Below are positions 36,106 to 40,694 of a stretch of 64,000 nt of DNA, in pieces (the first letter of the stretch is position 1; every line of letters begins with the position of its first letter). Origin of the DNA: a phage. The position numbers were made by a program, and so were the translations under genes. Below the pieces are notes generated by a model. It saw only the letters and a program-made list of their open reading frames with translations. It did not search any database and was not told where the DNA came from. The stretch is from the sequence record PZ476263.1; one strand, 5' to 3'.

Positions 36106-36348
36106 TTAATTTTCATTTAATACCCTTAGTGATTTCTTTTCACAAATATCCCTGAGCCTGACTACCTCTCCTATTAGATAGGAAATAGCCTTAGCTTGTA
36201 CTGGTTCATCGTAATCCCCAACTGTCCCAAACACTTCATCGAGAGATAGGAAGAACCCTGAAGAGTAAATACTGTTTTGATCTTCTATAGCACGGTCTGC
36301 ATTAAATTTAATATCTTCCAGGGTGCTATTACTGATATTCATAGTCAA
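36106..36348 (-). CDS. hypothetical protein
   Basis: 80-aa ORF, ATGA overlap with downstream gene. Confidence 0.3.
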   Translation of the reverse strand: MTMNISNSTLEDIKFNADRAIEDQNSIYSSGFFLSLDEVFGTVGDYDEPVQAKAISYLIGEVVRLRDICEKKSLRVLNEN

Positions 36349-36725
36349 ACTCCATAATCTATCTTAACAAGCTTCCCTTTGTAGTATCCAAAGTTTTTAG
36401 GAAATGCGTCGTACTCGAAGAAATCTCGGTCAAGGGTTCTATCTTTATCGTTATCAATCTCATCATAAAGTTTTTGTAGATCAGCTTTAAATAATTCCTC
36501 ATTTTCTACTGGTTTAGCCTTGTGCATCACAACCATAAGTCCGAACCTGTTTGAGTGAGCTATTGGGCACAGATGCGGGTTATTATACCCTTTCCACTGA
36601 CCCTCTGTCATATTGCTGAGCATTCCTTGAACAAACGCCTTCCATGAATTAAATCTTGGGAACTTAATCGCATACTTGTTTGTGATTATGACAATTCTCG
36701 TCCCGCCACTCCTGTTTATCTGCAT
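36345..36725 (-). CDS. hypothetical protein
   Basis: Start set at the internal ATG with SD GGAG, because the ORF-track start lies inside the promoter -10. Confidence 0.35.
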   Translation of the reverse strand: MQINRSGGTRIVIITNKYAIKFPRFNSWKAFVQGMLSNMTEGQWKGYNNPHLCPIAHSNRFGLMVVMHKAKPVENEELFKADLQKLYDEIDNDKDRTLDRDFFEYDAFPKNFGYYKGKLVKIDYGV

Positions 36726-36765
36726 CTTAATATCTCCAGACCTCGTTACTTGTTTCGATGAGGGC

Positions 36766-36793
36766 ATCATACCAGAATGAATCTGTGTGTCAA
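36766..36793 (-). promoter_or_regulatory. sigma70-like promoter
   Basis: TTGACA-N16-TATGAT on minus strand. Confidence 0.4.
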
Positions 36794-36807: not shown

Positions 36808-36834
36808 GCAATAAAAAACCACCCCGAAGGGTGG
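36808..36834 (-). terminator. rho-independent terminator (minus strand)
   Basis: On minus-strand RNA: CCACCC-UUCG-GGGUGG followed by UUUUUUAUU, just downstream of the polymerase 3' exon. Confidence 0.55.
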
Positions 36835-36852
36835 CTTAAGATTAAAGTTTCA

Positions 36853-37755
36853 TTAGTGACAATCTCCCCAGCTGTATCCACACAAGTATTCCCCTGTGAT
36901 ATGCACTGGTGATTTCATCATCTTAGCTGCTTGTTCGACACAACGAACAACCATCTCTCCTACAGGGCAGTATGTAATAGTGAAGATACCATTTTCATCT
37001 GGATCACACTTAAACTTACCTTCCTTGACACAATGGCCTTCGAGGACCATCTTCTTAGCAAGACATGCCTCAACAAAAGCTTTTGCATCAGCTTCGTTAT
37101 CAAACTTCCATACCTTTTTGAACTTCTCCGGCACTTCAAGCTGGTACTCGTCATGGTAATAAATTGTACGACGTACACCTTGATCATACCAACCTTTTTT
37201 AACCAGCTGCCAATGCAACAGGATACCTACCAAGTCAAACATGGCAGCACCACCGTTCTGTTGGAAAGCGTTAAGCAATGAGTGTTTGGATCGGGTATAG
37301 ATCTTACGACCATCAAGACCATAAATGAATCGTTTACCGTTGGCTTCCCAAAACTTCTCAAGTGCTTCTTTACGACCTTTCAAACCTAAGTTGCTATCCC
37401 AAAATGCATCGATTACTGCTTGTGCTTTCTCCAATGAAATTCCAAGCATGGATGCAATCTTAGCTGCTTGAGCACCGTACATAATTCCATAGGTGATCCC
37501 CTTTCCTTCCCCACGAGATACTTTCTTACCCGCTGCCTTGGTATATGCTTCTGCGTTTCGACTATGAGCATCACCACTTTCCATAATTCGGAGGTAAGCA
37601 CCACCATCGAATTCATAACTTCCCCATGCAGCGACCATACCCTCTAAGTTAGAACCGTCTATACCTACCTGATACTTACCCTCGGGTACAGTGAAAAGGT
37701 CACGCATTTCTTTACCTAGAAGAACCTTAGGATCAGGCTTCGGCACGTTAGCACA
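36853..37755 (-). CDS. DNA polymerase (family A), 3' exon
   Basis: Contains motif A-like 'VGIDGSNLEGM', motif B-like 'ITYGIMYGAQAAKIA' and motif C 'YHDEYQLEV'. Frame stays open upstream of the GTG ('..ANVPKP', cf. PNLxNIP). Confidence 0.75.
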   Translation of the reverse strand, partial: CANVPKPDPKVLLGKEMRDLFTVPEGKYQVGIDGSNLEGMVAAWGSYEFDGGAYLRIMESGDAHSRNAEAYTKAAGKKVSRGEGKGITYGIMYGAQAAKIASMLGISLEKAQAVIDAFWDSNLGLKGRKEALEKFWEANGKRFIYGLDGRKIYTRSKHSLLNAFQQNGGAAMFDLVGILLHWQLVKKGWYDQGVRRTIYYHDEYQLEVPEKFKKVWKFDNEADAKAFVEACLAKKMVLEGHCVKEGKFKCDPDENGIFTITYCPVGEMVVRCVEQAAKMMKSPVHITGEYLCGYSWGDCH

Positions 37756-38959
37756 ATATGTTCGTTAAAGGTCGCAACTCTTTAACCGGGATCGTATACA
37801 CCTGAAGAAATATCTCTTCACACTTTCGAGTACGATTCCTGTTTCTTTTGCTACGTCACAGAAATCTTTCCCATCAAGTATCATTTTTGTTATCTCTAGT
37901 TCCAACTCTTCTTTAGTTTTGTTTCTTAACTTACTGACCCCAAAAGTTTTATCTTCGGCAAATTTACCGATAAAAAATCTAACTGTCGGTTTCTCTAAGT
38001 TTAGGATCTCACAAATCTTTAAAAGAGTCGCACCTTTCCACCATAAAGATCTTGCTTCTTCTGCAAGATGTTTCTTTTCTTCCACTTCAGAAACACATTT
38101 CCCCATGTCGAAAGTTTTTAAGTATCTTGCTGCAAAGTGCCTTTCTTGTCCAAGGTCCAGAGAGATTTTTGCATACGAATCACCTGCCAGATATCTTTTA
38201 TGGATGTGCAGATACATCTCTCCATAGTTATCAAAGCCGGATTGTTTTGCTCTATTATCTCTTTTTGCCATTGAACTTCTTTCAGATGCGATAGTTTTTA
38301 TGGACTCACCAAAAGAGTTTCCAATTGCATCTGGACTAGGACTCACCGCTGAAAAAGTATTATTAGTCATGTTATAGAATTCTGTATTGTTGGCTGCATC
38401 ATTCTCTAAAAGAACTTTTTCTTCGATTTCACGAAGGAGATCTCTTTTGTCTACAACTTCCAACACCTCAGCTACAAATCTATGACCACTTTTTAAATCC
38501 TTTTTCATATCTGGATTGGAAGAGGACCCAAGATAAGGTTTTCCACTCTTAATCGAGATTATTGTGGGGATTCCATCCACATCTATCACTTTGCATTCAC
38601 TTTTACTTCCGATATATTTGTTCGGGTATTCTTCTTTATCGATGTTTTTCAAGAGATAAACAATGTTCATGTATACGTCCTCCGCTGTATCTTTCAACAC
38701 AGTTCAGACTATATCTTTGACACACTAAAGGATAGCTGAACCAATCTACCCCTAATGTATCACAAACCACTTCGATTGTCTACGCTTACAATCTACGCCT
38801 TCCGGCTAGTCGTTGAACCTTCTACCTGTCTGGTAGCTTGGCTGCTGATTGCCCAATCCTTTAACTTTTTAAACCTTCGCTTTGTATTCCTACTCGCAGT
38901 GGTATAAAGGCTCTAAGGGGTTCCCAGCAATTCAATTTGTTTTATACTGAGGCAGCTTT
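37756..38959 (-). mobile_element. group I intron (with homing endonuclease ORF) in the DNA polymerase gene
   Basis: Minus-strand RNA carries the conserved elements in order: P-like AAUUGCUGGGAAC (38920-38931), Q-like AAUCAGCAGCC (38840-38850), R-like GUUCAACGACUAG (38806-38818), S-like AAGAUAUAGUC (38707-38717). Boundaries approximate. Confidence 0.7.
37765..38670 (-). CDS. GIY-YIG family homing endonuclease (intron-encoded)
   Basis: Starts 'MNIVYLLKNIDKEEYPNKYIGSK...' (IVY...YIGS, cf. I-TevI GIY...YVGS); SD GGAGGA; ORF lies 3' of the intron core. Confidence 0.6.
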   Translation of the reverse strand: MNIVYLLKNIDKEEYPNKYIGSKSECKVIDVDGIPTIISIKSGKPYLGSSSNPDMKKDLKSGHRFVAEVLEVVDKRDLLREIEEKVLLENDAANNTEFYNMTNNTFSAVSPSPDAIGNSFGESIKTIASERSSMAKRDNRAKQSGFDNYGEMYLHIHKRYLAGDSYAKISLDLGQERHFAARYLKTFDMGKCVSEVEEKKHLAEEARSLWWKGATLLKICEILNLEKPTVRFFIGKFAEDKTFGVSKLRNKTKEELELEITKMILDGKDFCDVAKETGIVLESVKRYFFRCIRSRLKSCDL

Positions 38960-40694
38960 AGTTTACCACAGTGTGTTTACGACGGCCTGTATTCGTTATT
39001 CCAGTATAACGTGCAGGTAATTTACCGTCCACCGCAAGTCGAGGATGGTTTAACCAACCTGTATCTACTTTATCCTCTTTCAAAGGATCAAGAACACTTC
39101 GACGGTTACGAAGAGATAGCCATTTTACAATCTGCTTTGCCATATCACCATCGACTCGCTCAAGGTTAGGACAAAGGCCCTGCTGATCCTTAAGCTGCGG
39201 TGATGTTGGTAATGCTCTTGCCTTCTTCCTGAAGAACTTATACATCTTCTCTTTATCTTGCCACTGCTTACCACTGATACCTAAACTTTTCAGAATCAGA
39301 TCGCGATATTCAGTCTGGTCAAGATCATCAATGTATTGACGAACAATGATATCGACTTCGTTATCGGGACGTTGTTTCTTAAACTGGTCCTTCGTCGCAT
39401 CTTTGGTTCGCCACAATGTTGGGACCCAACCCGCATCACGAATAAGGAATTTTTTAACGTCATCCTGATTACCAATACGCATCGGAATCATAATATCCGG
39501 CATCTTTTGATCTTTGATATCCATCAATGCACGGGCCATGTCTTCCGGTGGCAAAGGTACAAGATTTTCCTTTTTCACATTTTGAGAACGAATAAATTCA
39601 GCCATTTTGGATTCATCTTCTACACCATGCTCTACACAATACTTAATTGCAGCAGATGTGAGTGAACCATCGCCCTTAAACGGCTTACTTGGAGCGCCTT
39701 TAAATTCAAGAGCTTCCCAATTCACATTGTAACCTAACTTCTCTAACCATTTCCAGCCCGTACCAGAAAGAGATCCATCTCCTTTAAACGGCTTAGACGG
39801 GAAAGTAGGCTGTGCTGACTTGGACATCTCTTTCTTCGGCAGCTTTGGTTCAACCTCTTCTTCAATTTCTTTCATCATCGTATCAATACGATCACGCAAA
39901 GCTAAACCTTTCTCCACGTCGAAAGTAACACCCTGAATTTCTTGCTCAACCATCAAATAGTCGGTAAGCATACCTCGACGCAAGGCATTCTTCCAATTGA
40001 TGAGCTTCATCTTCTTCGGATCTTTGTCCGATTCATCTTTGTACATGAAACGTTTATCATCCGGCATAGAGTCACATGAAATTTCTTTCATGAGGGCATC
40101 CCATACCATTTCGTTGATGATTACGTCTTCAATAATACGATCACAATATTTCCACAAAGGGAGTCCACGCCAATCTTCGATTGCTACCTTCTGGTTTGCT
40201 ACTCGCATACCCCAAGCTTCAAGTCCATGAGGGCCTACAGGCTTCATTTTACCTGTAACTGGGTTCTTTACCATCTCGGGACAACCGCGCGGCAGAGGGC
40301 GATCTGGATACAGTGTACGGGACATTGAAAGGGTATCGAAGATGTTAACTTGTTTACCATTGATAGTCCCCATGCAACCAGGGTCTGCAAACATATCGTA
40401 TGTTGTTCCAAACATCTTTTTAAACAGCTGTAAGTCATAGCCGAAGATATTATGGATAGCAACAGCTTTTGGTTCAGTCACAAACCACTCATTAAGTTCT
40501 TCCAACTTACGGATCTTAAAGTTCTTACCTTTGGATTGAATAAACTTAACCGCTTGCTCGTAGCCTTCGCGGTTCGGATCGATAAAAATATTCCAATTGT
40601 CCTTTTTGTACTCTTTAAAAAGAACACAGTGAACAAGATCAACTTCTGTCAACAGGCCGTTAGCCTCTGCATCTCCAATAAACAAACCTTTCAT
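38958..40694 (-). CDS. DNA polymerase (family A), 5' exon with 3'-5' exonuclease domain
   Basis: N-terminus 'MKGLFIGDAEANGLL' matches the T7-type Exo I motif; ends '...YTGITNTGRR' (cf. TGR..PNL.NIP) before running into intron sequence. Confidence 0.75.
   Translation of the reverse strand: MKGLFIGDAEANGLLTEVDLVHCVLFKEYKKDNWNIFIDPNREGYEQAVKFIQSKGKNFKIRKLEELNEWFVTEPKAVAIHNIFGYDLQLFKKMFGTTYDMFADPGCMGTINGKQVNIFDTLSMSRTLYPDRPLPRGCPEMVKNPVTGKMKPVGPHGLEAWGMRVANQKVAIEDWRGLPLWKYCDRIIEDVIINEMVWDALMKEISCDSMPDDKRFMYKDESDKDPKKMKLINWKNALRRGMLTDYLMVEQEIQGVTFDVEKGLALRDRIDTMMKEIEEEVEPKLPKKEMSKSAQPTFPSKPFKGDGSLSGTGWKWLEKLGYNVNWEALEFKGAPSKPFKGDGSLTSAAIKYCVEHGVEDESKMAEFIRSQNVKKENLVPLPPEDMARALMDIKDQKMPDIMIPMRIGNQDDVKKFLIRDAGWVPTLWRTKDATKDQFKKQRPDNEVDIIVRQYIDDLDQTEYRDLILKSLGISGKQWQDKEKMYKFFRKKARALPTSPQLKDQQGLCPNLERVDGDMAKQIVKWLSLRNRRSVLDPLKEDKVDTGWLNHPRLAVDGKLPARYTGITNTGRRKHTVVN

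Follow-up and report, generated by a model that had tools for sequence, protein, structure and literature searches.

We analyzed a 64,000-nucleotide (nt) stretch of phage DNA (sequence record PZ476263.1; hereafter, the window) and found that its family A DNA polymerase gene is interrupted by a group I intron. We propose, with a probability of about 0.88, that positions 38964..37754 are a mobile group I intron in codon 577 of this gene, encoding a homing endonuclease with GIY-YIG and helix-turn-helix (HTH) parts. This proposal is carried by a match to the ribozyme model, covariation, exact restoration of the reading frame on intron removal, the nuclease fold of the encoded protein, and a signature of transfer. 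All features of the window described below lie on the minus strand.

Position and Boundaries of the Intron

The window is ~80–86% identical in nucleotide sequence to the Escherichia phages A7_1, A5-4, A73, W70, UPEC06, and LTH01 (Vequintavirinae). The phage is thus a relative of these ~140-kb myoviruses; it is rV5-like (Vequintavirinae).

An earlier note on this DNA had described two polymerase open reading frames (ORFs) about 1.2 kb apart on the minus strand, and the ORF list does contain them, at 38958..40694 and 36853..37746/37753. According to this list, blastn, and a codon alignment with the uninterrupted A7_1 gene, exon 1 occupies 38965..40694 and includes codons 1–576 and the first two nt of codon 577, ending with ...ACU GUG GU. 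Exon 2 (36853..37753) runs from the third nt of codon 577 to the stop codon and starts with U GCU AAC GUG CCG. The polymerase motifs A, B, and C were rightly assigned to the downstream ORF: exon 2 matches Pfam DNA_pol_A with 43.7 bits (cut-off 34.3), and the alignment with T7 DNA polymerase (E = 2.5e-16), in which the motifs are aligned, spans ...GIDGSNLE..., ...KGITYGIMYGA..., and ...YYHDEYQ.... The host gene is a family A DNA polymerase gene. The exonuclease domain claimed for the upstream ORF was not recovered, as Pfam gives no exonuclease-domain match in exon 1 and the N-terminal ‘DAEANG’ alone aligns, weakly, with ‘DIEAN’ of T7. The A7_1 gene encodes 884 amino acids (aa), and the joined exons of the window encode an 876-aa protein that aligns with the A7_1 polymerase without gaps at 92.8% identity.

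The sequence ...ACG ATC GTA GCA AAC GTA CCT... of A7_1 aligns with ...ACT GTG GT|AAACTAAAGC... and ...CATATTG|TGCTAACGTGCC... of the window. The intron was placed at 38964..37754 because no other junction both restores the frame and fits group I introns, in which a U precedes the 5′ splice site and the final intron base is G. Mapped in this way against the intron-less allele, the last base of exon 1 is 38965, and exon 2 begins at 37753; the intron is 1,211 nt long, begins with AAACUAAAGCU..., and ends with ...GAACAUAUUG, the terminal G being at 37754. The U|...G| rule is also kept in 13 related introns. The interruption that the earlier note had placed at 37756–38959 is therefore present, with true ends that differ by 2 and 5 nt; the offsets arose because ORF ends had been used, whereas the TAA at 38960–38958 is intron sequence. 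For the same reason, translation of unspliced RNA would halt two codons into the intron.

As had been proposed, the insertion falls between the equivalents of TGR and PNL.NIP (TGRRKHTV(V)|ANVP), before the N-V-P equivalent of PNLQNIP. Codon 577 is the sixth codon past the Arg of TGR, and we take it to be site 674 in the numbering of E. coli polymerase I, counted from R668.

Other placements of the boundaries were rejected. In the Rfam boundaries (39052..38685), the P1/P2 alignment extends 88 nt into exon 1, and the match ends at P9; we instead adopted boundaries based on the intron-less allele, P1, and the terminal G. A phase-0 junction (GUA|...|GCU) would give the window neither U at −1 nor a terminal G. 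It should be noted that the junction of the related intron in locus L028 is in phase 0, one nucleotide later than that of the window, and that the junction in L029 may be shifted by 3 nt. For the window, the predicted spliced junction is ACUGUGGU|UGCUAACG, within ...ACACUGUGGU|UGCUAACGUGCC....

Ribozyme Core and Covariation

The Rfam group I model RF00028 matches the intron with 73.8 bits (gathering score 50, E = 7.3e-17), the sole Rfam match in the window at the gathering threshold. The four core strings quoted in the earlier note as resembling P, Q, R, and S occur once each and in minus-strand order: AAUUGCUGGGAAC (38932–38920), AAUCAGCAGCC (38850–38840), GUUCAACGACUAG (38818–38806), and AAGAUAUAGUC (38717–38707).

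From metagenomic and IMG/VR contigs, we gathered another 13 introns that occupy this position and aligned them with the window, 14 introns in all, from exon position −10 to the ORF start. From this alignment RNAalifold recovered P1, P3, P4, P5, P6/P6a, a P7.2-type hairpin, P8, and P9, so that the P1–P9 folding suggested as a check gave the group I helices, with P7 added as a pseudoknot and P2 absent from the alignment. With P7 included, 95.7% of the cells are standard pairs, compared with 34–42% when the partners are slid by 1–3 columns; 32 of the 52 pairs are changed on both sides, and none of 500 shuffles equaled the observed values. P7 itself is invariant, which makes its covariation uninformative, yet it is fully paired, and all six pairs of the P7.2-like hairpin are compensated. 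The Rfam score and the covariation together rule out a chance resemblance: the interruption is a group I intron, as had been suspected. It is of type IA, having P7.2 and lacking P2; to subgroup IA2 it bears a resemblance only.

The catalytic core, delimited by RNAalifold and pair counts, spans 38685..38939. It comprises P3 (38939–38934/38768–38763), P4 (38929–38924/38848–38843), P5 (38919–38917/38854–38852), P6/P6a (38842–38817), P7 (38811–38807/38711–38707), P7.2 (38793–38774), P8 (38762–38718), and P9 (38702–38685).

In P1, the exon strand CUGUGGU (38965..38971) pairs with the internal guide sequence GCCUCAG (38947..38953), and the U.G wobble at the 5′ splice site is between U38965 and G38953. 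Five of the six counted P1 pairs are compensated across the 14 introns, and the U.G pair is kept in 13/13. The exon strands vary with the host gene (ACUGUGGU, AGUGUGGU, UGUGUGGU, AGAGUGGU, CGUGUGGU, UCUGUGAU, CGUAUCGU, and GGACGAU), and the guide sequences change in match (GCCUCAGU, GCCUCACU, GCCUCACA, GCCUCUCU, GCCUCACG, GUCUCAGA, GCGUUACG, and GUUGUCU); L024, L026, and L027 have differing exon sequences, each with its matching guide. The 5′ splice site is thereby fixed without recourse to the protein alignment. The terminal G is present in every intron examined, and an AGC just upstream of the guide can, on a reading of the sequence, pair with nt +2 to +4 of exon 2 as a short P10.

The Intron ORF and Its Terminal Hairpin

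An ORF of 301 codons plus stop (37765..38670; ATG at 38670, stop at 37767–37765) follows the core, in agreement with the earlier description. The entire catalytic core lies 5′ of the ORF, whose stop codon is 10 nt before the 3′ splice site. A putative Shine–Dalgarno sequence, GGAGGA (38678..38683), stands 7 nt before the ATG and immediately 3′ of P9. In a promoter scan, sites were no more numerous than in shuffled controls, and we claim no internal promoter.

The encoded protein consists of an N-terminal GIY-YIG (SegE-like) nuclease domain (~residues 1–105) and C-terminal HTH repeats (~125–295). The GIY-YIG assignment is not obvious from Pfam alone, where the window protein falls below the cut-off, and requires profile and fold evidence, which supports it. 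The best Pfam match of the family is SegE_GIY-YIG, with 20 of 36 relatives matching at E < 0.01, while 4 of 36 match PF01541. The GIY-YIG alpha/beta fold is solid; the domain is structurally closest to the catalytic domain of I-TevI and, with its additional beta hairpin, belongs to the SegE type. The family is conserved over its full length across 38 clusters: Y5, Y19, G21, and Y46 are conserved, and E83 and N100, which align with E75 and N90 of I-TevI, are invariant.

Annotation offers little about this protein. Single-sequence searches gave weak HTH matches only in NCBIfam and nothing significant in the PDB (phmmer), and tblastn against 50,697 GenBank phages returned a single match at 29% identity, so that no annotated relative could be used. 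The exact sequence is absent from a collection of 15 billion proteins, in which its nearest relative is 98% identical; one NCBI member of the family is named ‘hypothetical protein’. Nuclease activity is strongly predicted for the protein, which would act as a homing endonuclease.

The end of the endonuclease ORF also forms a hairpin: its final six codons, its stop, and the base that follows make up GUUAAAG-AGUUGCGAC-CUUUAAC (37764..37786), near the 3′ end of the intron, so that this segment has a dual coding role. A hairpin of the last six codons and the stop is present in all intron-borne copies, and after it come GAAYA, an A-rich run, and the terminal G; the hairpin is absent from the 3′ ends of the free-standing relatives described below. 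In 11 introns, 77 of 77 hairpin cells are paired, compared with 13–56% in slid controls, and 4 of the 7 pairs are compensated. In one such compensation, UUA...UAA is replaced by CUA...UAG, the change in a Leu codon being matched by one in the stop codon. Overlap between ORFs and intron structure has been described before (reviewed in PMC3984707). The hairpin probably helps the core to reach the 3′ splice site, which is ~930 nt away from P9.

Mobility and Occupancy of the Site

The intron of locus L008 is 96.9% identical to that of the window (ribozyme 96.9%, ORF 96.9%), whereas the polymerase exons of the two are 70.5% and 69.3% identical and the neighboring genes scarcely align. This step in identity lies at most 9 nt from the 5′ splice site and at most 4 nt from the 3′ splice site; the 5′ tract that the two introns' flanks share coincides exactly with CTGTGGT, the P1 strand. 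We read the step as the signature of a recent horizontal transfer, nearly without co-conversion, and it suggests either that the enzyme cuts very close to where the intron inserts or that the flanks are under strong selection.

None of the 60 best-matching GenBank relatives has an insertion at this site. The same codon is, however, occupied in polymerases only 20–36% identical to that of the window (L014, L024, and L025). This occupancy, together with the match to published site 674 (PMC3428280), indicates a genuine homing hot spot, and the earlier suggestion of a conserved homing target is upheld.

Some contigs with the same endonuclease-carrying intron have up to three introns per polymerase gene. 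One or two extra group I introns lie in exon 2 in L004 (6287–6561), L005 (5210–5470 and 5844–6118), and L006 (5553–5827), at window-equivalent residues 666|667 and 779|780, which are the sites used in the Pectobacterium phage CB7 and in A73.

Free-Standing Relatives of the Endonuclease

The same protein family occurs outside introns in eight fetched loci. In L015–L019, the free-standing copy ends 9–10 nt before the start of an uninterrupted 713–773-aa polymerase gene, the Shine–Dalgarno sequence of which comes after the endonuclease stop codon; in L020, L022, and L023, the copy is downstream of the polymerase gene. The copies in L020 (2501–3712) and L022 (2501–3754) are longer (403–417 aa), and that of L020 has a C-terminal AP2 DNA-binding domain; the copy in L017 (2501–3415) is broken by a stop codon into 102 + 195 aa. 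In a rough neighbor-joining tree, drawn without support values, the free-standing copies form two clades inside the intron-borne diversity.

No ribozyme remnant fits the 13–80-nt spacers of the free-standing loci, and among the loci examined, there is no case of a free-standing copy beside an ORF-less intron. A comparison by eye of the ORF flanks with the exon junction revealed no obvious similarity of the kind expected as a Loizos-type invasion footprint.

As a tentative idea, which we would not favor at present, the family may be an endonuclease that switches between free-standing and intron-borne life styles at one gene, with the 3′ end of its ORF recruited as a ribozyme hairpin and with transfer carrying essentially only the P1-pairing exon bases. 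If so, these loci would form a natural series for how composite mobile introns form or fall apart (‘endonuclease invasion’, ‘collaborative homing’) and would point to a GIY-YIG enzyme that, unlike I-TevI, cuts at or very near its insertion site.

Proposed Mechanism and Alternative Explanations

Under the proposed model, the gene would be transcribed through the intron, the first ~280 nt of which would form the ribozyme core. The exon end CUGUGGU would pair with the guide GCCUCAG to form P1, with the U.G pair marking the point of cleavage; an external guanosine would attack after U38965, and the freed exon would then attack after G37754, joining ...ACU GUG GU to U GCU AAC... and giving the message for the 876-aa polymerase. 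Splicing in vivo is strongly predicted; RNA left unspliced would yield the N-terminal 578 aa only, up to the stop UAA at 38960–38958. The 301-aa ORF would be translated from its own Shine–Dalgarno sequence, and the GIY-YIG/HTH nuclease would most likely cut intron-less alleles near the insertion site in a mixed infection, after which repair of the cut allele would copy the intron in (homing). The hairpin at the ORF end, 10 nt before the 3′ splice site, would probably present this distant site to the core.

Several observations count against this model. The window protein scores 16.6 bits with Pfam SegE_GIY-YIG (cut-off 25). No invariant Arg matching R27 of I-TevI was found in the family, the aligned K56 being K/R in most members only. 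There are also two consecutive GIY..YIG-like beta hairpins within residues 1–50 (window 38670–38520), at residues 3–23 (IVYLLKN..KYIGSK) and 33–50 (GIPTIIS..KPYLGSS), either of which may be the catalytic one: profile methods pair I-TevI with the second, while the first has the better-conserved Tyr/Asn/Tyr-x-Gly pattern. In the RNA, P1 contains a conserved U-U mismatch at −4, P10 has ~3 base pairs (bp) only, and the Rfam P1/P2 alignment is meaningless where it enters exon 1. Finally, shared exon tracts of <10 nt are unusual for homing of the I-TevI type, and the cut site or the mechanism may differ from textbook homing.

The weaknesses on the protein side (the missing Arg, the two candidate hairpins, and the low Pfam score) would also fit an intron that splices while its ORF no longer serves mainly for homing, being an inactive remnant, a splicing helper (maturase), or a weapon with which the polymerase gene of co-infecting competitor phages would be cut. 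The relatives that stand free beside uninterrupted polymerase genes fit as well, since they indicate that the protein family does not depend on the intron, and an intron endonuclease of phage PhiPA3 is reported to serve in phage competition in this way (PMC11620839). We nevertheless consider this explanation unlikely, given the full-length conservation of the protein with E83 and N100 invariant and the step from 96.9% to ~70% identity, which reflects a recent precise move and therefore needs a targeting activity; moreover, homing and competition can coexist. A far less probable explanation is that the gene is truly split, with a dead ribozyme and with polymerase halves that are translated separately and then assemble. 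Endonuclease-split phage genes exist, and the parts of Aeh1 NrdA have been proposed to assemble (cited in PMC7344957); in the window, such an arrangement would be consistent with the stop that exon 1 meets in frame two codons past the 5′ splice site and with the GTG at 37746, a possible start for exon 2. However, this GTG is preceded by CAUAUUGUGCUAAC, without a Shine–Dalgarno sequence, and the split would cut the fingers subdomain inside a conserved motif, while the core is intact and under structural selection, P1 tracks the exon changes, and intron removal restores the reading frame exactly.

We give no credence to an intein, another protein-level element, or a chance group I resemblance. 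Related phages do have inteins in their replication genes (CB7), but here the sequence itself refutes one, because the in-frame stop at 38960–38958 ends the exon 1 frame and the ORF has its own start and Shine–Dalgarno sequence; chance is excluded by the Rfam E-value of 7e-17 and the covariation. We therefore retain the mobile group I intron with a homing endonuclease as the preferred explanation.

Neighboring Features

A strong hairpin resembling an intrinsic terminator (36816..36837) lies outside the intron, 16 nt past the polymerase stop codon; it has a 9-bp stem with 5 G-C pairs and a T run. A near-consensus sigma-70 promoter (TTGACA-16-TATGAT with TG, 11/12) at 36793–36766 precedes the next gene (36770..36345). 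In A7_1 (L001, 4159–4662), the polymerase stop codon is directly followed by an extra 167-aa ORF with a weak AP2-domain match, which may be a free-standing homing endonuclease and which the window lacks. In A5-4, two overlapping coding sequences are annotated for the N-terminal region of the polymerase (L002, 1477–1950 and 1947–3836); they suggest a frameshift or an error in sequencing, not an insertion. No transfer RNA or transfer-messenger RNA genes were found in the whole 64-kb window.

Significance

As a composite mobile group I intron, the element is typical and belongs to a well-known kind of selfish DNA. Less ordinary are the largely unannotated GIY-YIG/HTH family at a hot spot described earlier with HNH enzymes, the covarying overlap of ORF and ribozyme, the unusually sharp transfer signature, and the free-standing relatives by the same gene. 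For annotation, the polymerase should be one spliced 876-aa protein, not two genes and a ‘hypothetical protein’, and the enzymes of the codon-674 hot spot in family A polymerase genes now include one of the GIY-YIG family. The intron also illustrates cleanly a recent transfer between phages with polymerase genes that differ by ~30%, and the occurrence of one protein family both within introns and free-standing at the same target bears on the origins of mobile introns. If its predicted activity is real, a long-target nuclease with modular HTH repeats could interest genome engineering.

Comparison with Known Introns and Endonucleases

In the family A polymerase genes of phages, introns have been published at sites 674 (SPO1, SP82, Bastille, and Pf-WMP3), 676 (phiL7), and 881 (PhiI and W31) in E. 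coli numbering, and all of these introns are of subgroup IA2 and carry HNH enzymes (PMC3428280). Like the introns of SPO1 (I-HmuI), SP82 (I-HmuII), Bastille/Chotacabras (I-BasI), and Pf-WMP3 (I-PfoP3I), that of the window occupies the hot spot of this gene that lies in the fingers subdomain, between TGR and (Q)N-x-P (PMC3428280). It differs from the introns of SPO1, SP82, Bastille, and Pf-WMP3 in encoding a GIY-YIG/HTH protein instead of an HNH nicking endonuclease. A survey of Bastillevirinae lists polymerase introns with HNH, LAGLIDADG, and unclassified nucleases and GIY-YIG enzymes in other genes only (PMC11878797); a limited literature search brought up no polymerase intron with a GIY-YIG enzyme, which is not proof of novelty.

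The 5′ half of the intron in the Bastille-like phage Chotacabras is 78% identical to that of the window over ~128 nt. Its P1 (GAACCCU/GGGGUUC) and terminal G would place the junction at ANP|QNMP, 1 nt apart from the TVV|ANVP junction of the window; the junction of L028 is exactly at this Chotacabras-like phase-0 position. In Chotacabras, the HNH ORF (I-BasI) splits the core, with ~98 nt of intron after the ORF, whereas in the window the complete core precedes the ORF.

Within the same phage subfamily, CB7 (Vequintavirinae) has two HNH introns in its polymerase gene, the splicing of which was shown by reverse transcription PCR (PMC7344957). CB7, A73, and A5-4 resemble the window in having group I introns in this gene. 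The CB7 introns differ from that of the window in their sites (after ~aa 665 and ~778 rather than 577), their HNH family, and their ribozymes, which are below the Rfam gathering score. The interruption of A73 (L003, 6322–7055) and A5-4 (L002) follows ~aa 778, contains a 172-aa HNH ORF, matches the CB7_50 intron of CB7 (L012, 9494–13521), and is absent from the window; in A73, it scores as a group I intron (39.7 bits, E = 1.8e-8) when searched locally with an E-value threshold. At the gathering threshold, Rfam missed the introns of A5-4/A73, CB7, Chotacabras, and L021, the last of which was recovered by eye and tblastn.

The layout with the core first and the ORF 3′ of it, together with a core of similar nucleotide sequence, is shared by the window with the introns of the Streptococcus phage Str-PAP-1, whose ORF encodes GIY-YIG and NUMOD domains, and of PAP02. 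The latter, an N4-like Pseudomonas phage, has an unannotated group I intron (L009, 2947–3210; 91.4 bits) that splits a gene annotated as ‘RNA polymerase large subunit’ and contains a 213-aa ORF with no Pfam match; its core is 85.8% identical to that of the window over 127 nt, despite an unrelated phage family and an unrelated host gene.

Like the td and nrdD (sunY) introns of T4 with I-TevI and I-TevII, the intron of the window is a phage group I intron with a GIY-YIG endonuclease; the sunY ORF is also 3′ of the core. The DNA-binding part of the window protein consists of HTH repeats, unlike the zinc finger/NUMOD/HTH arrangement of I-TevI. I-TevI cuts 23–25 nt from its insertion site, and the shared exon tracts of <10 nt argue against such a distance for the window enzyme. 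Free-standing GIY-YIG endonucleases, such as SegE of T4, are also close, the best Pfam match of the window protein being SegE_GIY-YIG. The family members that stand beside uninterrupted polymerase genes represent the starting situation of the ‘endonuclease invasion’ (Loizos et al.) and ‘collaborative homing’ (Zeng, Bonocora and Shub 2009) models (reviewed in PMC3984707).
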